DNA of 64,000 nucleotides, from positions 2,784,001 through 2,848,000 of the forward strand of contig CAXXKJ010000002.1 in assembly GCA_963675295.2 (NCBI GenBank), read 5' to 3'. Made by a program: the position numbers and the translations under genes. Under the pieces are notes generated by a model. The model saw only the letters and a program-made list of their open reading frames with translations, was not told the origin of the DNA and made no database searches. Below are positions 1 through 15,669 of the stretch, piece by piece. How positions within the stretch are numbered: position 1 is the stretch's first letter; each line of letters begins with the position of its first letter. The stretch comes from a bacterium (GTDB lineage Bacteria > Electryoneota > Electryoneia > Electryoneales > Electryoneaceae).

Positions 1-473
1 CTGGGTATAGTCATCCGTCCTTCCGCATCGATACCCCAATGATCGCCGAGGCGCAAGTTCAGCCCCGCAAACGCGTGTCCCTTGAACAATAGCGAGGTTC
101 GGCTGTGCTGTTCGAGTAATCCGCCCGCGAACACGGTTGAATATTTGCCATGCATCCCGGGACCCGCTGACAGAACAAAGGTCAACCTGGACAATACGGG
201 GAAATCATGCCGTGCAAGGGCGAACAAGGAACTGACACCTATCATTGTCCTCGTGATGTCCTCTTTTTTTATTGCGACTAGAGTCTCGAACCGAAGTTCA
301 GGATCTAGCAACCACTCGGTATCTAATCGCCATTGGCTTCCTCCCTGCCAAGCGGTGTCCATGTACCCAAACGGATATGCTACGGCAGCGCTGATAGAGA
401 ATTGGGACTGCATGCCCTGACAGTCTTGTGGCACCAGCAAGAGGATGCTCAAAATCGCCAGACATGTAAAAAT

Positions 474-1022
474 AAACTACCCCGCAGCAAGCTACGGGGT
501 ATCGACTACTCACAGCTCAAGTCGACTTTGATGTAGCGGCTGGTAGTTAGCTTCTGTACCTTGGTTCATAACGTATTTTCTGATTGTATTTTCGTCACCG
601 TGCGGACCTACGGTGGATATATAATAACCTTTTGTCCAAAATTCCCCACCCCAGAGCTGCTTTTTAACTTTGGGTTGTCGGATAAACATCTCTCGTGCTG
701 TTATGCTCTTTATAGTTCGTACTAATTTTGTAGCACTCATGGTTGGCACGGATTGCACTAAGAAATGCACATGATCTCTATCTATTCCAATTTCTATAAA
801 TTCTATTTCATAACGTTTTTGGATTTCAAAGCAGATATCCTTTAATGTTAAATCTATCTCAGGTTCATCAAATACAACACGACGGTATTTCGCTACACAT
901 ACAAGATGGTATAGCAATATCGATACGTTGTGTTGTTTTCGGATCAGCTCAGACATTCCACAAGAAACCAACTGCAGCTGGCCGAAGCAAGCTTCGGGGC
1001 ATCAACCGCACTGGAGTGAAAC
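474..1022 (-). mobile_element. IS200/IS605-family insertion sequence (tnpA only, about 545 bp)
   Basis: A Y1 transposase lies between two related hairpins: TACCCCGCAGC-AA-GCTACGGGGTA (478-501) and CCGAAGC-AA-GCTTCGG (982-997). The element is AT-rich relative to its flanks, and AAAC occurs at both junctions (474-477 and 1019-1022). Confidence 0.85.
510..956 (-). CDS. tnpA: IS200/IS605 family Y1 (HUH) transposase
   Basis: Contains YHLVCVAKYRR, the HUH motif DHVHFLV, LWGGEFWTKGYY and the catalytic-Tyr helix IRKYVMNQ. Start taken at MSELIRK. Confidence 0.93.
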   Translation of the reverse strand: MSELIRKQHNVSILLYHLVCVAKYRRVVFDEPEIDLTLKDICFEIQKRYEIEFIEIGIDRDHVHFLVQSVPTMSATKLVRTIKSITAREMFIRQPKVKKQLWGGEFWTKGYYISTVGPHGDENTIRKYVMNQGTEANYQPLHQSRLEL

Positions 1023-1047
1023 ATGTACTTGCGTATCATCATCATCC

Positions 1048-1515
1048 TCACGATTTCAGCTCGATGACCAGCACCATGTGTGAGCTGCTGTTTGTCTTGG
1101 GGACAACGGGTTCTGTTTCAACAGGATCATCCCCACCCCCTGTTTTGTATACATGTTCGCCACTCAGGGAAGCGATACCACCGATATACACGGCCAGGAG
1201 ATAAATGCCGTCATCGACCGAATGATTGTCATCATCGGTGTAATCCCACTGCACGGTGTGAACGCCGGCAGCAAACATGCCCTTTGCAAGATCACGGACC
1301 AACTTGCCGCTGGGCTCGTAAACGGCAATCGAGGCCGAGGATGAAGCAGCCAGGGAAAATTCAATCTCGATCGGAACATCCCGGTTGGTGACTACGACAT
1401 CGACATCGTCCTCATCATACAGCGTCGGTTCGACAAGGTTCTCTGTGTCACAGCCGCACAGCAAGCCAATCAGTATCAACAATGGAATCCACGGAAGTAG
1501 CGCATGTCGTCGCAT
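1048..1515 (-). CDS. Lipoprotein with FlgD-Ig-like domain
   Basis: Signal peptide with lipobox LLCG-C; FlgD-Ig pattern IAVYEPSGKLVRDL...TVQWDYTDD...DGIYL. Confidence 0.7.
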   Translation of the reverse strand: MRRHALLPWIPLLILIGLLCGCDTENLVEPTLYDEDDVDVVVTNRDVPIEIEFSLAASSSASIAVYEPSGKLVRDLAKGMFAAGVHTVQWDYTDDDNHSVDDGIYLLAVYIGGIASLSGEHVYKTGGGDDPVETEPVVPKTNSSSHMVLVIELKS

Positions 1516-1531
1516 GTTGTCCCCCTACAAG

Positions 1532-1555
1532 GGGCCTGCCAGGTTCGACAGGCCC
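1532..1555 (-). terminator. GC hairpin downstream of the FG-GAP gene (possible terminator or attenuator)
   Basis: GGGCCTG...CAGGCCC inverted repeat; U-tract is weak. Confidence 0.35.
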
Positions 1556-1576
1556 ACATTGCGTGCTCAGATGGAT

Positions 1577-3436
1577 TTATCGGACCAGCATCACCTTCTG
1601 GACGTCGTTCAACTCGCCAGGTACAACCGTGCGGATGAAAAACAGTCCGCTGGCCAAGTGAGATGCGTCAAACACCAGCCCATGTGTGCCGGCGGAGTGT
1701 TCTCCATCAGCCAGTTGCATCACGAATTGGCCGGTGACGTTGTACACCGCGACGCTTAGATCGGCTGTTTCGGGAAGGTTGACATGAATCGTGGTCGTTG
1801 GATTAAACGGGTTGGGATAGGCGGCGCTGCACTCATACTGCAACGGCAACCCATCGTTGTCAGATGCTTTGGTTGTTACAGCTGAATGGGTGAACGCAGA
1901 GTGAACACCATCCGCTCGCCAGTGTGTACTTGAGTTGCCGGGAGCTGTGTTTCCCGCGACGATTTCAAAATCAAACTCGTCGCTGCCTACGACCGCATAC
2001 GGGAAACGTCCGGCGTACATGCGGTAGGTATAGGAACCAAGCGGAGCATTTCCGGGGATTTGTTGCCCGAGACCTGATGCGAAGAGTACACCGCCCGGAG
2101 CGATCGGTAGTTGTTCGATCAACCACACAGGCCCGTATTCATCGCCATTGGGAAGGACCGCTACGGTCCAGATGTCGACATAGCGGAATGTGGGTAGCAG
2201 GCTGTGAATGACCGCGTCATATTGAAAGTACCCACCGCGCTGGACATGCAACATCGGCTGAGCGATCAGAGTCACATCGAACAGGTTTGGCAACTCAACT
2301 GGTCCAACCTGCTCCCACAGGGTGATTTCCTGGGCGTAGACTGCGGATCCTAGCACGTCGATGTCGCCGTCTTCATCCATATCCATGGCGAGCACATAGA
2401 ATGCACCATCGAAGTCGCCGTCGATTGTATGCTCGGTCCAGTTTGCCACATTGTTCGTGCCATCGTTCTCCCACCACGCAACCTCACCGCCGGTGACGGC
2501 TGTTGCGAGAATGTCGGTGTCACCATCTCCATCAACGTCTGACGCATACACACCTGCTGCCCAGTCAAAATCATCGCATACGGTGTGTTCGATCCAGTTG
2601 TCGACATTGTTGGTGCCGTCATTCTCCCACCACGTGACATCATCGTCATCCCGGCAGGTACCGAGCACATCGATGTCACCGTCACCATCCATATCTTCAG
2701 CGTAGACATACTGAGCCCCGGTGAACGCCCCGTCAATTGTGTGTTCGGTCCAATTGTCGACGTTGTTGGTGCCGTCATTTTCCCACCACGTGATGTCGTC
2801 GGCGTAGGATGCGGCTCCCAGAATGTCAATATCTCCGTCGTCGTCAACGTCTCGTGCGTAGATCCCATTTGCCCCGTCGAAAGCACCATCGACCGTGTGT
2901 TCGGTCCAGTTGTCGACGTTGTTGGTCCCATCATTTTCCCACCACGTGACATCATCGTCATCTTTCGCAGCTCCGAGCACATCTACATCACCGTCGCTGT
3001 CGACATCGATCGCGAACACACAGTGTGCGCTGTTGTAAGCGTTGTCGACCACATGTTCGACCCATACCTCGGTGTTACCGGCCCCGTCGCTTTCCCACCA
3101 GACGATTCGATCACCGAGCTTGTCTGCACATAACACATCGGTGTCACCATCTCCATCAACATCGATTGCATAGACATAAAATGGATCGATAACGGACGAT
3201 CCGACCAGATGCATCGTCCAATCGGCCAGATTGTTTGTGCCGTCATTCTCAAACCAGACGACCTCATCGTTGTTAATGATCCCAGCGATGATATCGATAT
3301 CACCATCGCCGTTCATATCGGTCGCATGCACCGAGCGGCAGTCAAACACACCATCCGCGGAGTGTTCGATCCATTGCTGAGCAGCTGCCAGAACCGGCAG
3401 CAAAATCGCAACCAAGACACACACTTTCACCTTCAT
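1577..3436 (-). CDS. Secreted FG-GAP/VCBS-repeat beta-propeller protein with T9SS-type C-terminal sorting domain
   Basis: Signal peptide; seven DxDxDGDxD repeats; C-terminal YPNPFNP...QKVMLVR. Confidence 0.88.
   Translation of the reverse strand: MKVKVCVLVAILLPVLAAAQQWIEHSADGVFDCRSVHATDMNGDGDIDIIAGIINNDEVVWFENDGTNNLADWTMHLVGSSVIDPFYVYAIDVDGDGDTDVLCADKLGDRIVWWESDGAGNTEVWVEHVVDNAYNSAHCVFAIDVDSDGDVDVLGAAKDDDDVTWWENDGTNNVDNWTEHTVDGAFDGANGIYARDVDDDGDIDILGAASYADDITWWENDGTNNVDNWTEHTIDGAFTGAQYVYAEDMDGDGDIDVLGTCRDDDDVTWWENDGTNNVDNWIEHTVCDDFDWAAGVYASDVDGDGDTDILATAVTGGEVAWWENDGTNNVANWTEHTIDGDFDGAFYVLAMDMDEDGDIDVLGSAVYAQEITLWEQVGPVELPNLFDVTLIAQPMLHVQRGGYFQYDAVIHSLLPTFRYVDIWTVAVLPNGDEYGPVWLIEQLPIAPGGVLFASGLGQQIPGNAPLGSYTYRMYAGRFPYAVVGSDEFDFEIVAGNTAPGNSSTHWRADGVHSAFTHSAVTTKASDNDGLPLQYECSAAYPNPFNPTTTIHVNLPETADLSVAVYNVTGQFVMQLADGEHSAGTHGLVFDASHLASGLFFIRTVVPGELNDVQKVMLVR
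2400..3260 (-). repeat. Intragenic 156-bp (52-aa) tandem repeats
   Basis: CCACCACG recurs at 2471, 2627, 2783 and 2939; the peptide WWENDGTNNVxNWxEHT is repeated. Confidence 0.85.
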
Positions 3437-3481
3437 GATTTCCCCCAGTACTTGTCTTCGCTATTCCTTTCCTTCTTATAG

Positions 3482-3498
3482 TGCAAGTGTTGCGCCAG
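3482..3498 (-). promoter_or_regulatory. sigma54 (-24/-12) promoter of the FG-GAP secreted protein gene
   Basis: Minus strand reads CTGGCGCAACACTTGCA (GG-N10-GC, close to TGGCAC-N5-TTGC), about 45 bp upstream of the ATG. Confidence 0.8.
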
Positions 3499-3525
3499 AT
3501 AGTACGGAGCACCTACACTTTTATT

Positions 3526-3538
3526 AATCAATGATTTA
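3526..3538. promoter_or_regulatory. IHF-binding site
   Basis: AATCAATGATTTA matches WATCAANNNNTTR exactly and sits between the promoter and the enhancer sites. Confidence 0.65.
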
Positions 3539-3569
3539 ACCTAGAAAGACGTAGGAGGAGAAGTCAATG

Positions 3570-3609
3570 TGTCATCTCAGGATGACAGGGGTGTAATCTC
3601 GGGATTGCG
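3570..3609. promoter_or_regulatory. Tandem enhancer (bEBP) sites
   Basis: TGTCATC-TCAG-GATGACA (3570-3587, perfect 7-bp arms) and TGTAATC-TCGG-GATTGCG (3592-3609). Confidence 0.7.
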
Positions 3610-3690
3610 CGGAAAACCGGAAAACGGTCGGAAGGTTGACAAGCACTGGTGGGATCCTGCCAGTAACCAGGGAAGCCATTCCTGATGCTA

Positions 3691-5070
3691 TCAGGAATCA
3701 GATAGTTCGCGGAAGTCGGCAGGATCAAGGCCCAGGGTGGAGAATATCTTGTACAGGCTGGGTCTTTGAATACCAGAGCAACGGGCGACATCTGCCACTT
3801 TCCCACCTTCCCGTTTCAACAATTCCGTGAAATACCTTAGACGGAATTGCTGTAGCGCAGCCTCATAATCGATGTTACCATCGACTTCGCTTGGGGCGTT
3901 GTCGGCCAACCTCCCGAACATCAGTTTATCCGGCGTAATCTCGGTGCCTGTGGTTCGGATGCAGGCGGCTTCGAGCACGGCGAACAACTCGCGTACGTTT
4001 CCCGGCCAACTGTAGTTCATCAGCTGCTTCATTGTTTCTTTGGACAGCATGGGTGGGTTGTTCTGCCTCCCACGGATCTTCTTCTCAAGATAATAGGCGG
4101 CGAGAACAGGGATATCGTCCAGGTGTTCACGTAGCGGCGGCAGCTCGATCGGAAAAACGTGCAATCGGTAGTACAGGTCTTTGCGGAATGATCCGTCTTT
4201 GACTAGATCCTCCATATTCCGGTTGGTTGCCGCGATGATTCGTACATCAGCCGCTAGTGATCGCATCCCGCCGACACGTCGGAACTCGTGGGTTTCAATC
4301 ACTCGCAGAAGTTTCACCTGCATGTGTGTTGGCAGGTCGCCGATCTCGTCGAGGAACAACGTGCCGCCGTCTGCGATTTCGAAACAGCCAGCTTTTTTTC
4401 CGGTAGCACCGGTGAATGCCCCACGCTCGTGCCCGAAAATCTCACTTTCGAACAATTGCTCGGGCAAATCGGGCAAGGAAACCACGACAAAGGGCTTGTC
4501 TGCCCGTCCCGACAGCCGGTGCAGTTCGCGAGCGACAAGGTCTTTTCCTGTACCGGTTTCACCGGTGATGAGGACAGTGCTGTCCGTCGGGGCGGCTTGA
4601 CGGATCAGTTGCCGAACCTGCTCGACTGCCACATTCTGGCCGATATAGCCGCCGGCAGCCTGGTTCAGACGGTCTCGCAGATGCCCCAGTTCGCGACGCT
4701 GTGCCTTTCCATTCAGTGCACGCGAAATCATCGCGTCCAGTTCTTCCACGTCTGGCGACTTGCCGATATAGTCATCGGCGCCGAGTTTCATGGCACGGAC
4801 GACTGAATTCAAGTCCCGCAGCTTGGAGATCATGAAAACAGGTAGCAGGGGATCGATCGATTTGATCTTTGTGAGGACTTCAAGACCGTCCAATCGTTTC
4901 GGACCGAAATCAATGTCCAATAGTACCGCGTCAGGTGTGTATTCTTCCAGCTTTGCTATCGCCTCTTCACCACTCTCGCACTCCTGGATCTCATACTGAT
5001 CACGAAGTACAAGGGCTAGTGTTCTGCGGAATCCATTGTCGTCGTCAACCAGCAGGATGTGACGCTTCAT
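3691..5070 (-). CDS. sigma54-dependent response regulator (REC-AAA+-HTH, NtrC/AtoC family)
   Basis: REC motifs LLVDDD and LLDID; Walker A GETGTGKD; GAFTGA; Walker B LFLDEIG; WPGNVREL; C-terminal HTH. Confidence 0.96.
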   Translation of the reverse strand: MKRHILLVDDDNGFRRTLALVLRDQYEIQECESGEEAIAKLEEYTPDAVLLDIDFGPKRLDGLEVLTKIKSIDPLLPVFMISKLRDLNSVVRAMKLGADDYIGKSPDVEELDAMISRALNGKAQRRELGHLRDRLNQAAGGYIGQNVAVEQVRQLIRQAAPTDSTVLITGETGTGKDLVARELHRLSGRADKPFVVVSLPDLPEQLFESEIFGHERGAFTGATGKKAGCFEIADGGTLFLDEIGDLPTHMQVKLLRVIETHEFRRVGGMRSLAADVRIIAATNRNMEDLVKDGSFRKDLYYRLHVFPIELPPLREHLDDIPVLAAYYLEKKIRGRQNNPPMLSKETMKQLMNYSWPGNVRELFAVLEAACIRTTGTEITPDKLMFGRLADNAPSEVDGNIDYEAALQQFRLRYFTELLKREGGKVADVARCSGIQRPSLYKIFSTLGLDPADFRELSDS

Positions 5071-8000
5071 TGACTGGCTCCGCTTTTCTCGGCGTATCTC
5101 AACTCGATTCGCATGGTCGTACCCTGATCGGCCGATGATTCAGCAACGTAAATCGTGCCACCGAACCGTTGCAACAATTCCTTACTGCGATACAATCCGA
5201 AACCACCTCCCTCACCTCCGCCTTGGGCAGAAGTACTGAATGAGGCATCAAAGATGGCTTCCCAAAACTCCTCTTTGATGCCTGGTCCCGAATCGATAAC
5301 GTCCACCCTGACCATGACGGCAGACTGCTGCACCTGCAGACGCAGTTGCCTGGTCGTCCTGTTGGCCAGTACCCGCAGGCTGTTTTGAACCAGGTTGTCC
5401 AGCACGAACATCAGGTGTTGGCGGGGCAGCCTGACGAGCACATCTGCGGAATCGGTGTCAACCCTCAGTGTAATTCCCTTGGCAGCGATTTCGGATTCAT
5501 ATCGTTTCAGAACATCAGCAAGAACATCCGCCAGTACGGACGAGAACTCCGGCGACAGTTCAGCGCGCAAGCGGTCAATGCTCTCGTCAAGGTTTTCCAG
5601 CAGGTTCAACGTTTTCTCTGCATGCGGAATCTCTCCACGGACGATCGTGTCTTCCACTCGGCGCAGCCTCTGGTCCAACGTCCGCAGACGATCATTCAGC
5701 AGGTGCCCGTTCCCGCCGTTGACCTTCGTTGCTCGAGCCAGATGATCGATTCGCTGCAATGCTGGAAAGGTGTAGGTCTGAATCTGACTGATCAGCTCGT
5801 GAATGTGTCCTGCCAGTTCCGGACCGGGTTGCGTCGAACGATGGGACAGGTTCTGCAACAGGAATTTGAGACTGTCGACCGGACTTTCGACCTGCTTGTT
5901 CTGGTGCCGGAACTGAATCAGCTCGAGGTACAGCTGTTCACGATCCGTGTGACTGTGCGTTCGCTTCCGTGCCACTGCCCCGGGAATGGTCACCGTAGCG
6001 AATACGATCAGCGAGGCCCCGACATACCCGGCAACGAACCAGGGATAGAATCCCCAGAAGATGTACATCGCGAACAGCACAAAGGCTGCGAGCATCGCCA
6101 GTTTGCTGAGCGGTCGGCGCTTTTTCGGCCACAACCAGCCCATTAACAAGGCTGCCAACAGCAGCGGAAGACCCTGAAGCCAGAGTGGCAACCTTTTCAC
6201 CAGGTGCTGCACTGATGTTCGCCACAGAATCATCGGCGTCGCGACTGCCAGCTGGAACAATTGAGATCCAGATTCCACCACGGTGACAGTTGAACCCGCA
6301 CGGATGCCAGTCCTTAAGATTCGCAGTCCGGATGGGAAGACACATTCGAGATCAACGAGCCTTTGTTCGCCGGTTCCGAAGTGGATGGTTCTACTGGAGT
6401 GCGATGATTTTCCGCCGGTCTCAGCGGCTTGCCTGTATCCGAGCAATGCGTCCGACTCACCGAGACGACCATGGTGAAACAGTCGAACAACCGCCCCGAT
6501 TCCGTCACGGTTTGACTGAGTTCCGATCAGGTTCACTTTTAGGAATTGATTGTTATTGCATGGGTTGAGCTTCACTCGGTAATTGAGAAAATAGTCAACG
6601 ATGACGATGTCCAGATCGCCGTCATCATCGAGATCGCCACTAAGCAATCCATTCCCACCGCCAGAATCTTCAAATCCCGAGCCGATGATCTCATTCTTGA
6701 AACTGCCGTCTCCGTTGTTGATGAACAGGGCATTTTCCATGTCCACGTTCAGCAGGTACAGATCCAGCCACCCATCTTGATTCAGATCGAGAAATTCCGC
6801 TGCTTCGGTGGTGAAAGTCTGCGTGAGTGCAACCGAATCGGTGACATCGACAAATCCTTCTACTCCACGATTTTCAAGCAAGACGCCACTTTTACGATAG
6901 CTGTTCTCTGCTTCCGGATACCACGGCAGGTAGCAGGCATACAGGTCCAGATCTCCATCGTTGTCGTAATCCCCTTGACAGAATGTGTGATACGGATTGC
7001 CGCCCGGTTTTAATAGAATGTCCAACTGCTGTTCGGCAGCATTGAACTCAAATGCCCCCTGCCGGTAGTGAAGTTCGGTAAGCGGCGCATATAGATCAGA
7101 AATGCGATCCCCATCGTAGTCAGCAAATGCCGGGTGAGCAGTTCCGAGTCCATAGACCCAGTAGGCATCCAGACGGGAGTCAATGCGTTCATACCTTCGC
7201 TTTTTAACGGATTGAAACACATTGATTTTAAATTTGTTAACCTGATTCTCTTTCTTCCTGAAGTGATTGGCATAGCCATGATGAAGCAGGATATCCAGGT
7301 AACTGTCCTCGTCAAGATCCTGCACCAGAAAACCGGTCCAGTTCAATGGATCAGAAATGAAACCCCACCTTTCAGTCCCCGACTCAAATACTCCAGAACC
7401 ACGGTTTTCGAATAGCTGTGGCGGGCTTATGGCGTATTCGTTGGCCAGGAGGATATCCTGGTCGCCATCGTTGTCCAGATCGGCAAACAGCGCAGAGCTC
7501 CCCACTCCGATATCGCCGGCACCTTTCAATTTGGACTGGAAAAACTCTCCGTGACCGTTGTTAAGCAGCAACGGATTCGGATGCAGATGCGACGCGAAGT
7601 ACAGATCCAGGTCGCCATCACCGTCGGCATCTCCCAGCGCGGCAGCGTTGGGGTGGAATTTTGGCGAGTGGCTCAATTCATCCAGGGATTCGACAAGCGA
7701 GGGACTTGGATAATCCTCGAATGGACACAGGCGGGCGGGACCGACATAGATGTTATCCAGCCAGACATGCTGGATGCGTGTACCTCCGACATCGATTTCC
7801 AGCGAAGCCAGCCGGATGTTTCCAGCCAGGTCCGGGTATTGCGATTCAAGCAACCGTACGAGGCTGTCCACGGATACCGAAACACAATGCCATCGATTCG
7901 GTACCGTGGGTATCAGGCATTCATAGCTGAAGGTATACCGTGTACATGCATACCAATCGTAGTAGAACAGCCGTGAACTGTCCTGTGGCACCTTGAAATT

Positions 8001-8393
8001 CAGCCGCACGTTGGTGAAGTTCGTTTCCCACACGTCCGATACTTTCCATTCCCAGCGAAATGTGGTTGCTTCGTCGGGGCGAACATTCATCCAAGGTTGC
8101 AGGTCACGGCGAATCCTACAGCGTTGATTACCAGCCGGATCGAACAAGCTGACATCGAGACGCAACGTGGATGATCCGTCATGACCCGTGTTTGGTTCGA
8201 TGGAAAGGGACGTTGCCCCCGCCTCTTCGGCGATGTACCACGGCGAGGGAGTTGTCCGGTCGAACTCGTCAATCAGTGCGGTTATCTGTGCGGATGCTGA
8301 GGAAATTATGCACAGAGTCAGGATGGCCAGGAGCGCAATTGTTCCTGTTTCGTGCAGCGTTTGGCGTGATATATCTGGCATGCCCCACTTCAT
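5067..8393 (-). CDS. Sensor histidine kinase with extracytoplasmic FG-GAP/CRTAC1-ASPIC(UnbV)-like region
   Basis: N-terminal hydrophobic segment; GDADGDGDLDLY-type repeats; ASPIC-like SNRDGIGAVV...IHFG; about 3 TM segments; HATPase boxes DNLVQNS, DSGPGI, IFDASFST and GGFGL. Overlaps the regulator start by 4 bp. Start uncertain (8468, 8393 or 8381). Confidence 0.85.
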   Translation of the reverse strand: MKWGMPDISRQTLHETGTIALLAILTLCIISSASAQITALIDEFDRTTPSPWYIAEEAGATSLSIEPNTGHDGSSTLRLDVSLFDPAGNQRCRIRRDLQPWMNVRPDEATTFRWEWKVSDVWETNFTNVRLNFKVPQDSSRLFYYDWYACTRYTFSYECLIPTVPNRWHCVSVSVDSLVRLLESQYPDLAGNIRLASLEIDVGGTRIQHVWLDNIYVGPARLCPFEDYPSPSLVESLDELSHSPKFHPNAAALGDADGDGDLDLYFASHLHPNPLLLNNGHGEFFQSKLKGAGDIGVGSSALFADLDNDGDQDILLANEYAISPPQLFENRGSGVFESGTERWGFISDPLNWTGFLVQDLDEDSYLDILLHHGYANHFRKKENQVNKFKINVFQSVKKRRYERIDSRLDAYWVYGLGTAHPAFADYDGDRISDLYAPLTELHYRQGAFEFNAAEQQLDILLKPGGNPYHTFCQGDYDNDGDLDLYACYLPWYPEAENSYRKSGVLLENRGVEGFVDVTDSVALTQTFTTEAAEFLDLNQDGWLDLYLLNVDMENALFINNGDGSFKNEIIGSGFEDSGGGNGLLSGDLDDDGDLDIVIVDYFLNYRVKLNPCNNNQFLKVNLIGTQSNRDGIGAVVRLFHHGRLGESDALLGYRQAAETGGKSSHSSRTIHFGTGEQRLVDLECVFPSGLRILRTGIRAGSTVTVVESGSQLFQLAVATPMILWRTSVQHLVKRLPLWLQGLPLLLAALLMGWLWPKKRRPLSKLAMLAAFVLFAMYIFWGFYPWFVAGYVGASLIVFATVTIPGAVARKRTHSHTDREQLYLELIQFRHQNKQVESPVDSLKFLLQNLSHRSTQPGPELAGHIHELISQIQTYTFPALQRIDHLARATKVNGGNGHLLNDRLRTLDQRLRRVEDTIVRGEIPHAEKTLNLLENLDESIDRLRAELSPEFSSVLADVLADVLKRYESEIAAKGITLRVDTDSADVLVRLPRQHLMFVLDNLVQNSLRVLANRTTRQLRLQVQQSAVMVRVDVIDSGPGIKEEFWEAIFDASFSTSAQGGGEGGGFGLYRSKELLQRFGGTIYVAESSADQGTTMRIELRYAEKSGASQ

Positions 8394-8531
8394 GCCCACT
8401 GTCCCCCAATTCGTCGGATTGAAGTGACTCTCCGATGAACCCAGGCAAGATATGTGCCTCATGATCACGAAGTAAAAAACGTTCCGCTATCCCGCATTTG
8501 TTCCTCCCCTGCAAAGCTCTCGACAGAAAAG

Positions 8532-8570
8532 TGTCTCCCACGTATGACAGGTTGTCAGCTGAAACAGACG
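8532..8570. promoter_or_regulatory. Tandem enhancer (bEBP) sites
   Basis: TGTCTCCCACGTATGACA (8532-8549) and TGTCAGCTGAAACAGACG (8553-8570); TGTC-N10-GAC pattern with a 21-bp period. Confidence 0.62.
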
Positions 8571-8643
8571 GATGCTTCATCGGCTCGCATGTTGGAATTT
8601 TCTAAACCATTGTTTATTCAAATCTTGTTTCCAACCTCAACCT

Positions 8644-8660
8644 CAGGCCCTGTGTTTGCG
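8644..8660 (+). promoter_or_regulatory. sigma54 (-24/-12) promoter of the candidate sRNA
   Basis: CAGGCCCTGTGTTTGCG (GG-N10-GC with TTGC), 76 bp from the enhancer pair. Confidence 0.55.
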
Positions 8661-8670
8661 AATGTTGTGG

Positions 8671-8878
8671 CTGTCCAAGGGTGACGTAGTCGCGCGGACT
8701 GGATTCGTACAGGGGAAGGGCTCAGGGGCTACCTCCAGTGAATCTACCCGCGCCCAATGGAGACACGCACGGCGGTTCCGCTTTCCCCCGTGTGGTATGA
8801 AACCCAGCGCTGATCCACGGATGCGCGAAATAAGACGTGCAAGGAGGGGAGGTTGGGATTCGTCCCAGCCTCCTTTCT
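8671..8878 (+). ncRNA. Candidate sigma54-dependent small RNA (about 205 nt)
   Basis: Bounded by a -24/-12 promoter and a terminator; internal stems GCGCGG/CCGCGC, GGATTC/GAATCT and CACGG/CCGTG; no convincing ORF with an RBS. Confidence 0.45.
8848..8878 (+). terminator. Rho-independent terminator
   Basis: GGAGGTTGGGA-TTCG-TCCCAGCCTCC-TTTCT. Confidence 0.75.
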
Positions 8879-8958
8879 GGTTCATCAAGGCGTCTTTGTC
8901 GGAGCACGGTTTCGAAACCTCCAGCAACCGATCCAGCAGTCCTGTTTCCAGGCAAACC

Positions 8959-8997
8959 TGTCTCCCTTGGAAAACAGTTTGTCATCCAGCGAAGACA
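8959..8997. promoter_or_regulatory. Tandem enhancer (bEBP) sites
   Basis: TGTCTCCCTTGGAAAACA (8959-8976) and TGTCATCCAGCGAAGACA (8980-8997); 21-bp period. Confidence 0.65.
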
Positions 8998-9067
8998 CTA
9001 TTGTGGTGCTTTACTCCCCACCGAATGCAAAGCATTTGATTCCACTGAAATTACCAATTCTGGTTTT

Positions 9068-9084
9068 TCGGCATTCGATTTGCC
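9068..9084 (+). promoter_or_regulatory. sigma54 (-24/-12) promoter of the beta-helix protein gene
   Basis: TCGGCATTCGATTTGCC (GG-N10-GC), 73 bp from the enhancer pair. An IHF-like AATCAAATGCTTT lies on the minus strand at 9029-9041. Confidence 0.62.
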
Positions 9085-9148
9085 CATAACAACGGGAAAG
9101 GAGAAAAGGCATTCAGCAGCATGAAGTTTGGAACAGGGGGACAGGATC

Positions 9149-11608
9149 ATGTGTAAGCGTTGGACTGGAGTAGCTCTTGGCATTTTTTTGCTGGTTTCGG
9201 CAGGTATCGCTCAAACTGAAATCAGTGGTCCGCAAAGCGGAACCATCACAGCTGGCACGTACATCGTAGTCGGCAGCCTTTCAATCGTAAACGGTGAGTC
9301 ATTGACCATCGAACCGGGAACAACGTTTCTGTTCGATGGCGAACACGACTTTTTTGTTGGTTCAAACCGCACGTTGACCTGTGTCGGCACCGAAACGGAC
9401 AGCATCAAGTTTCTGCCGAATGTCGACAACGGCGTCACTGAGTGGGGGCACTTTTCGTTTATCAACTCGGGCAACGACGATCAGTTCGCGTATTGCTTGT
9501 TCTCTGGCGGGTGTTCTGAAAATTTTGGCGGTGCAATCGACTGCGCGAATTCAAGTCCATCGCTATCAAACTGTGTGATCCGGGATTGCATGGCAGACGA
9601 TTTTGGAGGTGGAATTGCATGCAGAGATGCTTCCGACCCGGTAATTGATCAATGCACGATTACTGGTAATTCGGCTTATGTTGGAGGTGGTGTTTACTGT
9701 TCTGAATCACAATCAACATTAACACAGTCATTAATCAGAGATAACAGTTCATATTCTGATGGTGGAGGCCTCTATTGCATTGATAATTCTGATTTAGGTG
9801 TATCAGACTGTATCTTCATCACAAATATCGCTGGTAGTAACGGTGGTGGAGTTTACTGCAATAATTCAATACCAAATCTTACGGCCTGCTCGTTTGATAG
9901 CAATCATGCTTTTTATGGAGGAGGTCTGTACTTTTATAACTATAGTAATGCGATAATCGAAAACTCATCAATAACAAACAATGTAGCTACTTCTCAAGGA
10001 GGTGGTATAATGTGTCATTTATATTCAGACTCTTTTATTAAATACTGCAATATTTCAAATAATACGGCAACAAGCAGCCATGGAGGTGGGATAAACTGTG
10101 GTCAGTATGCCGATGCTACCATTGAATATTGTACCATTGCCAATAATTTTTCAGGTGCACATGGGGGTGGTATTATCTCGGTAGGGTCTACTATCGATGT
10201 ATCTTGCTGTACTATTACTTCAAATACGTCAAATGCAAATACAGGAGGTATCTTTCTCCAACATCAAACGCCAAGTGTTGCAAATTCAATCGTATCCTTT
10301 AACACTGGTGTAGGTATTTATCTTGATGCTGGATCTCCTGAAGTCATGTTTTGTGATGTCTACAGCAACTCAGGAGGCGAATATGGAGGCAACGCACTTG
10401 ATCCAGATCTTGGTGTCATCGTCGGTGAGAACGCCAACGGGGATCCGTGCGACGCGTTCCACAACATCTCGATGGATCCGTATTACGTCGATGCTGCCAA
10501 CGGGGACTACCACCTGACGTACGGTTCGCCATGCATAGACGCCGGCGATCCGGACAGCCCGCCGGATCCGGACAATACCGTCGCCGACATCGGTGCGTTC
10601 CCATTCAGCCACGGACCCGCGATCCTGGTCACAGCCCCGACCGCCGGAACCGTCTTGATGCGAGGTGACAGCTTCGACATCACGTGGAACGACAACATCA
10701 CCGAAATGGTCTCGATTGAGCTGCACCAGGGGGGGAACCTGGTTGAAGTTCTTACCGACGGCACGGAAAGTGACGGCGTATACGAATGGGATATCACCGA
10801 GGACGGCCCGGTCGGCGATGACTTCACCATCGTCATCACCAGCACCACCGATCCGGGGGTAACCGACAGCAGCGATGAATTCACACTTGACGAACCACCC
10901 CTGCTGATCCTCGAACTGGTCGCGGATGACACCCTGATCGTGCCCCAGGGAGGTTCGTTTGAGTACGGTGTGATTCTGGAAAGCAATCTGGCAACGACGC
11001 ATATCGGGGATCTGTGGACGGAAGTGGATCTTGTGAGTGGGTACACGTACGGACCCATCTGGCTGTTGAGCGATATTTCCGTCGGGCCGAACACATCTCT
11101 GGTCGCTGAAGGCATCGGGCAGGCGATTCCGGCGACAGCAGCACCGGGCTATTACACTTTCCGGATCGAAATCGGTTACTTCCCCAGCTATTTCGTGTTC
11201 TCCGATGAAATCACAATTGAGGTTACCGAGGTACCCGTGGCTGGAATCAGCGGTTCAGAACCGGTCGATGATTGGCATGCGTGGGGGTACCAGGATGCGT
11301 TCAAGTTAAATATTGCTGCTATTGTGGACACCGAGCTCCCGGACGAATACAGCATGTCGCCGGCCTACCCGAATCCATTCAATCCGACCACGACTGTTTC
11401 CGTCAGCTTGCCGGAAACGGCAAGGCTGAAGGTGTCCGTGCTCAACATACTTGGCCGGAAGGTTGCTGAACTCGCTGACGGATCCTTCAGCGCCGGAGAA
11501 CACAATATCGTTTTCGACGCCACGAGACTTGGGAGCGGTTTGTACTTTATCCACGCTACCGTTCCTGGACACCTTGACCAGGTGCAGAAGGTGATGCTGG
11601 TGCGTTGA
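9149..11608 (+). CDS. Secreted right-handed parallel beta-helix (GGAI/GGGI repeat) protein with Ig-like domains and T9SS-type CTD
   Basis: Signal peptide; repeated N-x-A-xx-GGG[IVL]-x-C units; SPCIDAGDP and DIGAF motifs; YPNPFNP...QKVMLVR. Confidence 0.88.
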   Translation: MCKRWTGVALGIFLLVSAGIAQTEISGPQSGTITAGTYIVVGSLSIVNGESLTIEPGTTFLFDGEHDFFVGSNRTLTCVGTETDSIKFLPNVDNGVTEWGHFSFINSGNDDQFAYCLFSGGCSENFGGAIDCANSSPSLSNCVIRDCMADDFGGGIACRDASDPVIDQCTITGNSAYVGGGVYCSESQSTLTQSLIRDNSSYSDGGGLYCIDNSDLGVSDCIFITNIAGSNGGGVYCNNSIPNLTACSFDSNHAFYGGGLYFYNYSNAIIENSSITNNVATSQGGGIMCHLYSDSFIKYCNISNNTATSSHGGGINCGQYADATIEYCTIANNFSGAHGGGIISVGSTIDVSCCTITSNTSNANTGGIFLQHQTPSVANSIVSFNTGVGIYLDAGSPEVMFCDVYSNSGGEYGGNALDPDLGVIVGENANGDPCDAFHNISMDPYYVDAANGDYHLTYGSPCIDAGDPDSPPDPDNTVADIGAFPFSHGPAILVTAPTAGTVLMRGDSFDITWNDNITEMVSIELHQGGNLVEVLTDGTESDGVYEWDITEDGPVGDDFTIVITSTTDPGVTDSSDEFTLDEPPLLILELVADDTLIVPQGGSFEYGVILESNLATTHIGDLWTEVDLVSGYTYGPIWLLSDISVGPNTSLVAEGIGQAIPATAAPGYYTFRIEIGYFPSYFVFSDEITIEVTEVPVAGISGSEPVDDWHAWGYQDAFKLNIAAIVDTELPDEYSMSPAYPNPFNPTTTVSVSLPETARLKVSVLNILGRKVAELADGSFSAGEHNIVFDATRLGSGLYFIHATVPGHLDQVQKVMLVR

Positions 11609-11648
11609 TGCAGACAGGCTCCACAGATCGATTTTAAAGAGTCACTCT

Positions 11649-11688
11649 CGGCCACAGGTCAAATACCCCGACCATGTGGCCGTTTGTT
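11649..11688 (+). terminator. Probable terminator
   Basis: CGGCCACA-GGTC...GACC-A-TGTGGCCG-TTTGTT. Confidence 0.55.
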
Positions 11689-11961
11689 GCTCAGTGGCGC
11701 TTTACAGGTGTTTCTATCGCGAAGAATCGCAAGCATCTAGTGGATGGCTGCACAGTGAGCGCAGAGGATACGAGGTTCACTGAATGACCTCGAATCCGGT
11801 AGAGGCTATATTTTATATAGGATTACCCACTCCGTATTTGGTGCAAATGAGGTGCAGTGCGGACAACATACGACCACATTCAGCCACTTATTTCAAGAGC
11901 TAACCTATAGTATAATCAATCGTTAACAGTTGCGACTTGTTGTCGAATATTGGCGTGCTAA

Positions 11962-12007
11962 GACTGTTAATCACTAGGTTGGCGGTTCAAGTCCGTCCTG
12001 GGGAGCA
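11962..12007 (+). mobile_element. att-site remnant: 3' half of tRNA-Asn(GTT)
   Basis: GACTGTTAATCACTAGGTTGGCGGTTCAAGTCCGTCCTGGGGAGCA contains the anticodon loop, T arm and 3' acceptor strand. No D arm or 5' acceptor strand is present upstream. Confidence 0.8.
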
Positions 12008-12017
12008 AGAAGCAGAC

Positions 12018-12051
12018 AAGGGTCAGGCAAACGCCTGGTCCTTTCTTTTTT
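12018..12051 (+). terminator. Rho-independent terminator following the tRNA fragment
   Basis: AAGGGTCAGGC-AAAC-GCCTGGTCCTT followed by a T-rich tract. Confidence 0.75.
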
Positions 12052-12485
12052 CCGTTTCGACCGATCCAGAACCGCTCGACTTTCTTCGTACCGTTTCCAG
12101 CCAAGCTGTCTTGATGACACCCAAGGACACTCCCAAACCACTCCCTCAAGCCCTGAGTGCATGAGAACGAAAGCTGGCCCAAGTTAACGCACAACTGTCC
12201 CACATCGTGAAGAAATGAGGCACGGTATGGGTCTTTTCCCTCATACAAGATATGCCTGGCCTGGACGCATCCGAATTCCTTCTTTCCCGGCACGGACCAC
12301 CTTGGAATCCGACTTAGCCTTTACTTCGATTGGTGAATTCGTTACCTTCTTCACGAAGCCGTGACGGGTTTGTTCAGTGGTCACGGTGCACCGCAATTTT
12401 TGTCCCCTGCGATGCGGTCACAACCCTGTAGATTCAAAGTGTGCAGTCTGGTTTCTATCGTCCACTCTTGATGAAAAGGTCAACG

Positions 12486-14291
12486 ATGAAACACATTCTT
12501 TTCCTCCTCGCATTCGCAGTCTCCGCGTTTTCCCCAACATTCGCTCAAGTTCCAGACACCGTGTGGACAATGATCCATGGTGATTACGGCAAGAACATCG
12601 GCATGGATGTTGAGCAGACTCCGACTGGTGAGTTCGTCATTGCCGGCACGGCTCGTGTCACCCAGGATGACCCGCTCAACGGGGATGTCTGGCTGGTCAA
12701 ACTGGATGCAAACGGCAACGAGATGTGGACCAGCTACTTCGGTGGAGCGGGCGGCGAAGAAGGCCGGGGGATGGCTCCCGCACACGACGGTGGCTGGGTT
12801 GTCTGCGGTATGACGTATTCTTTCGGTGACCCGGACGTCGACGACATGTACTGTGTGAAAGCAGATGCAGATGGAAACCTCGAATGGGTGCGGACCTTTG
12901 GGGGTGACTACTCGGATGCAGGACGTGATGTCATTGCGACGAACGACGGCGGCTACCTGTGGGTTGGCTATACGCGCTCCTTCGGTGCAACACAACAGGA
13001 CATCCTGCTGGTAAAGACGGACGCGGATGGAAACGAGCAATGGCACCAGCTTTACGGCGGCAGTGAAAACGATCAGGGCTGGTCACTCGCGCAACTGGAA
13101 AATGGAAACTATGCGATTGCGGGACGCACGTGGTCGTATGGTGCTGGGGGACGTGATGCCATCCTGATGGAAGTCACGCCGACGGGTGAACAACTCTGGC
13201 AGCAAACGTACGGTGGTCCGGAAAAAGACCACTTCTATGAAATGCGTCCCACTCCCGATGGTGGATTCATCAACACGGGAAAAACAGAATCCTTCGGCCA
13301 GGGTGCGGGTGACGCATGGCTGATTAAAACGGACGCTGTCGGCGACGAAGAATGGCGCAGGTTCTGGGGCACAGAAGAACTTGAGTTCGGGCGAAGTTGT
13401 ACTCCCACAACGGACGGTGGCTATGCATTCTGCGGTGTGACCCATGTGGACGGAAATGTCGGCAATCAGCTCCTGGTGGCAAAAGCCAGCGCTGACGGTG
13501 AATGGGAGTGGTCTTTCACCATCGGCGGCAGCGACATGGAGGATTCATGGTGCATCCGCCAGACACAGGATTACGGGTACGTCGTATCCGGATTCAGCTG
13601 GTCGTATGGTAATGCAGAACGAAGCATGTTTGTCGTCCGCCTTGAATCAGATTATGGGGAAGTCTCAGCGAACCTGTCTGCGCCAACTGAACCGGTAGCC
13701 GTTACGCCTGAATCCACGTTTTCCTACACATGGGCTGTTCACAACAACACTTATGACCAGATCACAGGATATGACCTGTGGCAGGTCCTGGAATATCCTT
13801 CCGGGGTTCACGGACCACCGGAATTCATGTATTCAGACAACCTTGAGCTGGAACCGTTGACGGAAATTGGTCAGGACCTCCTGTACGAAGTTGGCAACTG
13901 GGTCCTGGGCACCTACAGTCTTCATCTGCAAGCTGGTCACTATCCGAACGTGGTTGACTCGGATGAATTGCAATTCATCGTCAGCGAATCCGGCACGGGC
14001 ACGGACCCCGAAGTGCTCATCCCGGAAACCTTTGCGTTGTCCAAGGTCTATCCCAATCCGTTCAACTCAACCCTCACAATTGCCGTCGATGTCGCCCAGC
14101 CCACGCAGCTCACGGTCAAACTCTTCGATGTGTCGGGACGTTTGGTGAAAACGCTGGTACGTGCTCCCGTAGCCCCGGGTCAACACCAATACAGTGCCCG
14201 CATGGATGATGTCGCGTCCGGAATGTATTTCCTGCTGGCTGAAAACTCACTCGGTGAATCAGCCACCGAGAAGGTTGTCCTGCTTCGCTGA
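12486..14291 (+). CDS. Secreted beta-propeller repeat protein with T9SS-type CTD
   Basis: Signal peptide MKHILFLL...AQ; repeats KxDAxGNxxWxxx[FY]GG and DGGY; YPNPFNS...KVVLLR. Confidence 0.85.
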   Translation: MKHILFLLAFAVSAFSPTFAQVPDTVWTMIHGDYGKNIGMDVEQTPTGEFVIAGTARVTQDDPLNGDVWLVKLDANGNEMWTSYFGGAGGEEGRGMAPAHDGGWVVCGMTYSFGDPDVDDMYCVKADADGNLEWVRTFGGDYSDAGRDVIATNDGGYLWVGYTRSFGATQQDILLVKTDADGNEQWHQLYGGSENDQGWSLAQLENGNYAIAGRTWSYGAGGRDAILMEVTPTGEQLWQQTYGGPEKDHFYEMRPTPDGGFINTGKTESFGQGAGDAWLIKTDAVGDEEWRRFWGTEELEFGRSCTPTTDGGYAFCGVTHVDGNVGNQLLVAKASADGEWEWSFTIGGSDMEDSWCIRQTQDYGYVVSGFSWSYGNAERSMFVVRLESDYGEVSANLSAPTEPVAVTPESTFSYTWAVHNNTYDQITGYDLWQVLEYPSGVHGPPEFMYSDNLELEPLTEIGQDLLYEVGNWVLGTYSLHLQAGHYPNVVDSDELQFIVSESGTGTDPEVLIPETFALSKVYPNPFNSTLTIAVDVAQPTQLTVKLFDVSGRLVKTLVRAPVAPGQHQYSARMDDVASGMYFLLAENSLGESATEKVVLLR

Positions 14292-14310
14292 TGAACAACT
14301 CGAGTAGACT

Positions 14311-15669
14311 ATGGACCGGCGTCAATTCGTAAAAACATCCTTCAGCACCACCGCCGCGCTGGCCCTGGCGAACCAGGGCTTTTCCCAACCGAATCAGCCA
14401 AATGTGCTCTTCATCGGCGTCGAAGATCTTAACGACTGGATCGGTTGCCTCGGCGGTCATCCAGACACGATTACACCCAATTTCGACCGCCTCGCAAACA
14501 TGGGCATGCTGTTCAGCAACGCCCATTGCAACGCGCCCGCATGTGTTCCCTCACGAACCACGCTACTTACCGGAATTCGTCCATCGACTTCCGGCGTGTA
14601 TGACAACGGCATGCACTGGCAGGACTACATCCCGGACGCGGTGACAATGCCGGTCCACTTCAGGGACCATGGGTACACCACGCGAAAAGCAGGGAAGATC
14701 TTCCATTTTGAGGAACCGACTTTCTGGGATGATATGGCGCCCTTTTCCCCGAAGGTCATACCCCCGGAAAAACGGTATAACGGTCTGCCACTGAAGCCGA
14801 ATGATCGCTTCGACTGGACAGCACTGGATGTTCCGGAAGAAGAGATGCAGGATTACAAGCATGCGGATTATGTCATCTCAACCCTTGAAAACCCACCCGA
14901 TCAGCCGTACTTCCTCGCTTGTGGATTTCACAGGGTACACACTCCCTGGTACTACCCGCGGAAATACATGGAGAAGTTCAATCCGAACGAGGTGACATTA
15001 CCACCCTACCTGGAAAATGACCTCGATGATGTGTCCAATATCGGTATCAGCTTCACCTACCCTGCCCTGTTCAACCAGGTGAAGAATTACAAGCAGTGGC
15101 ATGCGGGAGTGGCTGCTTATCTCGCGGGCATCAATTTCATCGACGCACAGCTGGGCCGCATCCTCGATGCCTTTGACGCTACCGGAGCGGCGGACAACAC
15201 CATCATTGTCCTGTGGAGTGATCACGGCTGGCATTTGGGTGAGAAAAACCACTGGAAGAAGTTCACCTTATGGGAAGAGTCCACGCGTATCCCGATGATG
15301 ATTCATGTTCCCTGGTTGACGACGGAGAACAGCTCCTCCGACCAGCCCATGAGCATGGTTGACCTCTTCCCCACACTCAATGACCTCTGCGGATTGCCGG
15401 ACATTGATCAACTGGAAGGTTCAAGCCTCGTTCCCTGGCTGAGCAATCCCAATTTGCAACGAGCGGAACCGGCGCTGACGACCTACCGCTACATGAACCA
15501 CGCTCTGCGTGACGACCAATGGCGTTTCATACGGTACAACGACGGATCTGAAGAGTTATACGATCACGATACCGACCCGAATGAATGGACCAATCTAGCG
15601 GATATCCCCGCCTATCAGCCAATTAAGGATGCCCTGAGTCAGTGGTTTCCGGAGGTGAATCACCCATGA
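14311..15669 (+). CDS. Formylglycine-type sulfatase (iduronate/choline sulfatase-like) with Tat signal
   Basis: MDRRQF twin-arginine leader; PNVLFI; CVPSR (CxPxR); GKIFH; SDHGWHLGEK; ELYD. Confidence 0.92.
   Translation: MDRRQFVKTSFSTTAALALANQGFSQPNQPNVLFIGVEDLNDWIGCLGGHPDTITPNFDRLANMGMLFSNAHCNAPACVPSRTTLLTGIRPSTSGVYDNGMHWQDYIPDAVTMPVHFRDHGYTTRKAGKIFHFEEPTFWDDMAPFSPKVIPPEKRYNGLPLKPNDRFDWTALDVPEEEMQDYKHADYVISTLENPPDQPYFLACGFHRVHTPWYYPRKYMEKFNPNEVTLPPYLENDLDDVSNIGISFTYPALFNQVKNYKQWHAGVAAYLAGINFIDAQLGRILDAFDATGAADNTIIVLWSDHGWHLGEKNHWKKFTLWEESTRIPMMIHVPWLTTENSSSDQPMSMVDLFPTLNDLCGLPDIDQLEGSSLVPWLSNPNLQRAEPALTTYRYMNHALRDDQWRFIRYNDGSEELYDHDTDPNEWTNLADIPAYQPIKDALSQWFPEVNHP

Follow-up and report, generated by a model that had tools for sequence, protein, structure and literature searches.

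We identified a compact sigma-54 regulatory locus in a stretch of 64,000 nucleotides (hereafter the window) from the genome of an uncultured bacterium of the family Electryoneaceae (assembly GCA_963675295.2, contig CAXXKJ010000002.1, positions 2,784,001 to 2,848,000). The locus encodes a large sensor histidine kinase and, directly after it, an NtrC-class sigma-54 activator, and contains four sigma-54 promoters, named P1, P2, P3 and Pkin. Each of these lies 73 to 76 bp from a tandem pair of 18-bp TGTC-N10-GACA-type sites, with a sequence resembling a binding site of integration host factor (IHF) in between (Table 1). We infer that the activator binds these sites and drives P1, P3 and Pkin, and give this circuit as a whole a probability of about 0.78.

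The promoters were scored by their matches to the 11 consensus positions of TGGCAC-N5-TTGCW and the enhancer sites by their matches to the eight bases of TGTC..GACA, distances being counted from the end of the proximal site to the first G of the GG. All four promoters match 8 to 10 of the 11 positions and have the GG-N10-GC arrangement with a TTGC −12 element, and the host genome carries rpoN, on which the prediction depends. The first-pass annotation had described three GG-N10-GC promoters; all three were found at their positions, but a minus-strand scan upstream of the corrected kinase start revealed a fourth, Pkin, that had been overlooked. All six sites of the three tandem pairs are placed as first described, with periods of 22 bp for pair 1 and 21 bp for pairs 2 and 3, and five of them match at least seven of the eight bases. 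The distances of 74, 76 and 73 bp between proximal site and GG at P1, P2 and P3 were measured again with the same result, and the exact IHF-like sequence previously noted for P1 was also read there. This sequence has 105 exact matches in the genome, both strands counted. At each of the four promoters the IHF-like sequence is centred 35 to 37 bp from the GG on the strand opposite the promoter, and four HU/IHF-family genes (family-level matches that cover HU and IHF alike) are present in the genome. When oriented by promoter, the four regions give a near-gapless alignment in register with 25 invariant columns. The anatomy of the locus is thereby established.

Single TGTC-N10-GACA sites occur in the genome at chance level (73 observed against 66.5 expected, no enrichment), which speaks for regarding the motifs and promoters as chance likenesses in AT-rich intergenic DNA. 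The combined units argue strongly against this. Promoter-like sites with at least 8 of 11 positions number 4430 genome-wide, and only 12 of them have a site of at least 7/8 located 72 to 77 bp upstream; 4 of the 12 fall within this 5.6-kb stretch, against a background of about 1.8 matches per distance value for the whole genome. The remaining eight look like chance: they are scattered over the rest of the 4.8-Mb genome, have no second site, show a spacer GC content of 0.54 to 0.71, and lie inside open frames of 212 to 873 aa. Tandem pairs in which both sites reach at least 7/8 with a period of 21 or 22 bp number five in the genome, two of them at this locus. The corrected search pattern gave three matches in this genome, all at the locus, and none in the control, whereas its 17 matches across 79 genomes of the phylum did not exceed the 21 of the reversed control. 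Because a third of the site-plus-promoter pairs lie here, the other eight are chance-like and the matches across the phylum stay at control level, the promoter-enhancer architecture is genuine and restricted to this locus; it is no general trait of the phylum. The first-pass annotation had raised the concern that the motif pair might be equally frequent in random intergenic DNA; the site-plus-promoter units proved to be far beyond chance, which establishes their genome-wide specificity. Given four units of identical geometry that align in register within 5.6 kb, a chance origin of the whole is extremely unlikely.

The regulator encoded between these promoters has the features of an apparently complete NtrC-class activator, with a putative Fis-type DNA-binding end. 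It contains a receiver domain (PF00072, E 1.3e-22) and an AAA+ domain (PF00158, E 3.8e-68), with ERGAFTGA and Walker A motifs read in the translation, and it shares 37% identity with E. coli GlrR over residues 4 to 455, reaching the last residue of GlrR. Asp52, as counted on the alignment, is aligned with GlrR Asp56, the phosphorylation site of that protein (PMC3045617). The last 80 aa matched the GlrR model (E 2.8e-6) as the sole significant family match, the next being AtoC (E 0.17), so that homology of the DNA-binding end to GlrR is established. The consensus of GlrR sites is listed as TGTC(N)10GACA in a table of a review (PMC4987338), and Göpel et al. describe three TGTCN10GACA sites and two IHF sites upstream of the glmY and glmZ sigma-54 promoters and provide binding and mutational evidence (PMC3045617). 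We read E. coli sites of this form upstream of glmY, and sites of the same form, likewise upstream of sigma-54 promoters as expected of GlrR/QseF sites, occur here. Since a GlrR-type DNA-binding end goes together with sites that equal the published GlrR consensus, the earlier proposal that the neighbouring regulator binds these sites becomes much firmer than it was from position alone, as an in silico prediction. Orthology with GlrR/QseF was considered and ruled out: the activator scores 315.5 bits against the GlrR equivalog NF011695, for which the cut-off is 763, its kinase is of the FG-GAP type, no qseG gene lies between the two genes, and no match to GlmY or GlmZ was found. Judged from its sequence, the protein is thus an activator with a GlrR-type DNA-binding domain and not a GlrR orthologue.

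The genome encodes about 20 strong sigma-54 activators, and a different one might be considered as the protein that occupies these sites, with the island activator acting elsewhere. One candidate is a chromosomal activator at G000:C2:1602731-1603231, whose DNA-binding end shares 40.5% identity with that of the island activator over 37 residues. The DNA-binding motif begins with the same G-G in both proteins, but the residues that follow differ; moreover, all four site-plus-promoter units flank the activator gene of the island, none that is convincing lies elsewhere, and the island was acquired as one piece. Binding by another regulator is therefore improbable in our view. Several findings weigh against the proposed circuit itself. 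In a search of 5.8 billion proteins, the best relative aligned over the full length of the kinase had 31% identity, and no orthologous locus was found; site 1b is weak, with 4 of 8 consensus bases, and P2 and P3 score just 8/11; a scan allowing at most one mismatch found no IHF-like match for Pkin, the degenerate sequence listed having been recognized by eye; HTH_8 was not reported by Pfam in the activator at E ≤ 0.001; and over the whole length of the activator the NtrC and AtoC models outscore that of GlrR, all of them staying below their curated cut-offs.

Pkin lies in front of the kinase-activator operon. We placed the start of the kinase at the ATG at 8393 and set aside the GTG at 8468 given in the list of open reading frames, because four observations agree on the former: a GGGGGA ribosome site lies 8 nt before this ATG, and the other two regulated genes are preceded by one in the same way; the signal anchor begins at this ATG; the protein database entry for this same kinase has exactly the 1108-aa form; and the closest homologue starts at the same point. 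The stop codon of the kinase gene and the start codon of the activator gene overlap by 4 nt, which suggests that the two proteins are probably co-translated. Enhancer pair 2 lies at the standard distance from both Pkin and P2 and thus between two divergent sigma-54 promoters, so it is predicted to serve both, in opposite directions. It had been proposed earlier that this pair could autoregulate the kinase; as Pkin gives the kinase operon a sigma-54 promoter of its own, with the usual 74-bp distance to site 2a, autoregulation is better supported than was thought.

Taken together, these data suggest the following working model. The membrane kinase would use its FG-GAP/ASPIC beta-propeller to read an extracellular signal and would phosphorylate the activator, probably at Asp52. 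The activator would then assemble on the tandem TGTC-N10-GACA sites, and a DNA bend at the IHF-like site, about 36 bp upstream of the GG, would allow it to contact sigma-54 polymerase at all four promoters, which are identically built. P1 would drive expression of a secreted FG-GAP protein and P3 that of a secreted beta-helix protein, both with type IX secretion system (T9SS) sorting domains; Pkin would drive the kinase-activator operon, giving positive autoregulation; and P2 would yield a transcript of about 215 nt that contains no gene. For an uncultured lineage this provides a precise and testable wiring with one kinase, one activator and four promoters with predicted starts.

Table 1. Coordinates of the features of the locus, as positions of the window; distances are from the proximal enhancer site to the first G of the GG.
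Feature	Position	Strand	Description
P1, sigma-54 promoter	3498 to 3482	minus	CTGGCGCAACACTTGCA; GG 3496-3495, GC 3484-3483; 10/11; 74 bp from site 1a; predicted start ~3471
P2, sigma-54 promoter	8644-8660	plus	CAGGCCCTGTGTTTGCG; GG 8646-8647, GC 8658-8659; 8/11; 76 bp from site 2b; predicted start ~8671
P3, sigma-54 promoter	9068-9084	plus	TCGGCATTCGATTTGCC; GG 9070-9071, GC 9082-9083; 8/11; 73 bp from site 3b; predicted start ~9095
Pkin, sigma-54 promoter of the kinase-activator operon	8444-8459	minus	AGGCACATATCTTGCC; GG 8458-8457, GC 8446-8445; 9/11; 74 bp from site 2a; predicted start ~8433
Enhancer pair 1	3570-3609		site 1a 3570-3587 (8/8); site 1b 3592-3609 (4/8, weak)
Enhancer pair 2	8532-8570		site 2a 8532-8549 (8/8); site 2b 8553-8570 (7/8); common to divergent Pkin and P2
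Enhancer pair 3	8959-8997		site 3a 8959-8976 (7/8); site 3b 8980-8997 (8/8)
IHF-like site of P1	3526-3538	plus	exact WATCAANNNNTTR
IHF-like site of P2	8603-8615	minus	1 mismatch
IHF-like site of P3	9029-9041	minus	1 mismatch
Degenerate IHF-like site of Pkin	8488-8500	plus	2 mismatches, by eye
NtrC-class sigma-54 activator, 459 aa	3691-5070	minus	Pfam Response_reg, Sigma54_activat, AAA_lid_14
Sensor histidine kinase, 1108 aa	5067-8393	minus	Pfam FG-GAP, UnbV_ASPIC, HATPase_c
Secreted 619-aa protein, predicted P1 output	1577-3436	minus	signal peptide; six FG-GAP_3 stretches; pre-sorting module; Por_Secre_tail
Secreted 819-aa right-handed beta-helix protein, predicted P3 output	9149-11608	plus	Kre9_KNH immunoglobulin-like; pre-sorting module; Por_Secre_tail
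Candidate non-coding RNA, ~215 nt	8671-8888	plus	from P2; 16-bp hairpin 8843-8878; U-containing tail
Right end of the island	11962-12010	plus	exact 49-bp repeat of the 3' end of tRNA-Asn(GTT) (aragorn, blastn)

Whether P2 makes a discrete small RNA has to be weighed separately, and we lean slightly towards the view that it does. The small RNA proposed by the first-pass annotation as an output of the regulon retains its promoter and a strong hairpin, and no plausible gene occupies its place; as to its identity, a search of Rfam at E ≤ 1 over positions 1 to 14000 gave two chance matches to eukaryotic families only and neither GlmY nor GlmZ, which leaves it a prediction. No open reading frame of at least 21 aa starts and ends inside the candidate RNA. 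The hairpin has a predicted energy of −27 kcal/mol; with its stem shortened by 5 bp, it is followed by UUUCUGGUU. A promoter-like site of at least 8/11 would occur by chance 72 to 77 bp beyond the other side of pair 2 with a probability of about 0.003 (4430 sites in 9.6 Mb of strand); in addition, the P2 spacer is AT-rich (GC content 0.39) like those of P1 and P3, its IHF-like site has the same offset as theirs, and small RNA genes are known to be driven by a GlrR-type activator in the system described by Göpel et al. (PMC3045617). A less probable but serious alternative is that there is no separate small RNA, P2 being either a fortuitous match next to an enhancer that acts on the kinase promoter alone or a second, upstream promoter of the 819-aa gene, in which case the hairpin could serve in attenuation or processing. 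Immediately downstream, on the strand of P2, come pair 3 and P3, so that read-through from P2 would reach the 819-aa gene, and the consensus score of P2 also fits this alternative. Further points count against the RNA: its predicted fold does not stand out from those of shuffled sequences (z −1.2), the U-tract is short, a simple terminator scan did not call the hairpin, and the RNA belongs to no Rfam family and has no second copy in the genome. One plus-strand frame also continues without a stop across the RNA region; it belongs to a 155-aa open reading frame that starts upstream of P2, for which no Pfam match was found. Predicted duplexes of the RNA with seven 5' regions ranged from −38.5 to −53.9 kcal/mol, within the background of 400 start regions (mean −42.8, standard deviation 7.0).

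The two protein outputs predicted for P1 and P3 had been described earlier as T9SS-type secreted proteins, and their sorting domains bear this out. Besides Por_Secre_tail, both match TIGR04183 (T9SS type A sorting), scoring 31.8 and 30.3 bits, above the cut-off of 23. The 819-aa and 619-aa proteins have in common a C-terminal unit of 240 aa with 45% identity, which comprises the pre-sorting module and the sorting domain and ends in VQKVMLVR. As to the secretion machinery, PorV was the sole component searched, and a PorV-like match was found in the genome (E 1e-44, below the curated cut-off).

Comparison with characterized systems shows which parts of the locus are familiar. The activator class and the site consensus are the same as those of E. 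coli GlrR (PMC3045617), and IHF-like sites lie between enhancer and promoter in both. The systems are also alike in that a non-coding transcript next to the kinase gene is among the outputs, namely glmY beside glrK in E. coli and the candidate RNA here. In contrast, the kinase here carries a large FG-GAP/ASPIC propeller and is not of the GlrK type, and the outputs other than the RNA are T9SS proteins. The spacing of the sites differs as well: by our own count, the three sites of E. coli glmY follow one another at about 33 and 63 bp, the one closest to the GG being some 90 bp away from it, whereas two abutting sites with a 21- to 22-bp period are found here. A second parallel is ZraR, in which one activator serves divergent sigma-54 promoters (zraP and zraSR), one of them on its own two-component operon, as proposed here (PMC4987338). 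The likeness concerns the arrangement; ZraS is a sensor of zinc and envelope stress and, unlike the present kinase, lacks a propeller. The cis-logic of the locus is thus of the textbook NtrC/GlrR type; the novelty lies in the propeller sensor, the T9SS outputs, the predicted two-way enhancer, the candidate RNA and the mobile context. Accordingly, the earlier statement that the signalling module is not recognizable as described stands for the sensor kinase and its setting but not for the enhancer type, which is that of the GlrR consensus. These data suggest that the GlrR-type protein-DNA recognition code extends far beyond the Enterobacteriaceae.

The kinase is composed of a signal anchor, an N-terminal domain, the FG-GAP/UnbV_ASPIC propeller, membrane segments and the kinase core. 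Its HATPase_c domain corresponds to PF02518, and Pfam did not report HisKA. His830, Asn1004 and the D1034xGxG motif are invariant across six family members, and the histidine of LxxFxH is invariant in the six. The extracytoplasmic residues before the propeller (about 37 to 240) had no Pfam match and could be aligned only with the closest homologue, P0003. A search of genome contigs with the kinase returned 80 loci that matched the FG-GAP region alone, with identities of at most 33%; no orthologue was found in forty relatives; and in the search of the 5.8 billion proteins a kinase domain was present in just 4 of the other 119 matches listed. Contigs of two runs that were compared came from the same strain only and contained no informative variants.

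More distant relatives with the same gene order do exist. FG-GAP kinases of about 1170 to 1212 aa lie directly before an NtrC-class activator in two other genomes (G011 and G004) and in four of six metagenome loci, one of which has a promoter 16-mer identical to that of G004 and may be the same locus. Of the other two metagenome loci, one is on a contig that stops after the kinase, and the other matches residues 991 to 1098, the C-terminal ATPase part, without an adjoining activator. Identity among the related kinases is 21 to 32%. In G011 and G004, a 10/11 sigma-54 promoter preceded by two tandem near-palindromes lies 3' of the activator gene. These near-palindromes have the form GTC-N12-GAC, as against GTC-N10-GAC here, and the outputs are a small receiver protein and a CarboxypepD_reg protein. 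The best model match of the DNA-binding end was NtrX for the G011 activator and NorR for the G004 activator, where GlrR scored almost as well. The metagenome loci L154 to L156, which are AT-rich, yielded no sigma-54 promoter with a tandem pair that we found convincing. Our literature searches yielded no description of FG-GAP kinases paired with sigma-54 activators, nothing on Latescibacteria with sigma-54, and nothing relevant on type IX secretion together with an enhancer-binding protein. The pairing of a propeller kinase with a sigma-54 activator apparently represents a small, undescribed family, and the present locus adds evidence for an unstudied group of signalling systems, some of which adjoin genes for type IX secreted proteins.

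The locus lies in a 25.2-kb island (G000:C2:2770712-2796010; locus L098) that extends up to position 12010 of the window. An intact tRNA-Asn(GTT) gene at G000:C2:2770712-2770785, detected by aragorn, marks the left end of the island, and an exact repeat of its 3' end marks the right end; ARAGORN found no whole tRNA in positions 1 to 16000 of the window. A tyrosine integrase gene (L098:3125-4252) starts 340 bp after the tRNA gene, and further island genes code for a Prim-Pol/AAA_25/DnaB_C replicase (L098:5489-7504) and for a DUF5681 protein. Of the 78 other genomes of the phylum, 6 have partial relatives of this replicase, with 33 to 50% identity. The GC content in 1-kb windows at the module is 0.45 to 0.55 as against 0.58 for the genome, and in three genomes of the same genus the sensor region of the kinase had no match and no orthologue of the kinase was found. 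Because of the tRNA repeat and integrase, the low GC content and the absence of the kinase from genomes of the same genus, we conclude that the predicted regulon is cargo on an integrative element; the literature searched contained nothing relevant on such islands. A sigma-54 circuit may thus travel as the cargo of an integrative element, provided that the host supplies sigma-54 and a DNA-bending protein.

Three more genes for FG-GAP proteins with T9SS sorting domains are located in the island (L098:9252-11351, 11742-13637 and 13672-15495). Neither a sigma-54 promoter nor a TGTC-N10-GACA pair lies upstream of these three genes, and no other promoters of the same build were found in the island; the local activator would therefore control only part of the island cargo. 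It is conceivable, but in our opinion unlikely, that the whole forms a mobile and self-regulating surface-protein cassette, in which the propeller would sense the induced FG-GAP/T9SS proteins or a ligand shared with them, giving contact- or density-dependent positive feedback, and the RNA would tie the island to host regulation. If this were true, a mobile element would supply a new cell-surface trait together with the sensory logic that controls it. Between the other cargo and the module lie minus-strand genes for an IS200-type Y1 transposase (window 510-971) and a 155-aa FlgD_ig protein (1048-1515). Just beyond the right end of the island, a plus-strand gene at 12441-14291 encodes a 616-aa protein with a T9SS sorting domain, and the GC content remains lower than the genome mean as far as about 17 kb.

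Similar enhancer-promoter arrangements were observed at a few places in other genomes. In two genomes of one genus (G067, L149:9377-9498, and G071, L138), a near-consensus sigma-54 promoter, TGGCATGCACTTTGCA, is kept with a TGTC-N10-GACA site 90 bp upstream. The G067 promoter precedes a T2SSE/T2SSF (pilus-type ATPase) operon, the last gene of which encodes a sigma-54 activator without a GlrR-like DNA-binding end. A query with the 59-aa DNA-binding end of the island activator found no close relative in G008 or G058. In G008, which belongs to the same family as the present genome, a tandem pair formed by TGTCTCATCGGTGAGACA and AGTCGCATGCCCGAGACA with a period of 22 bp occurs with a 9/11 sigma-54 promoter (G008:C1, L147:9594-9701). 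Its sites lie at 53 and 75 bp, and the arrangement stands before subtilase-T9SS and FG-GAP-T9SS genes, beside a DDE transposase.

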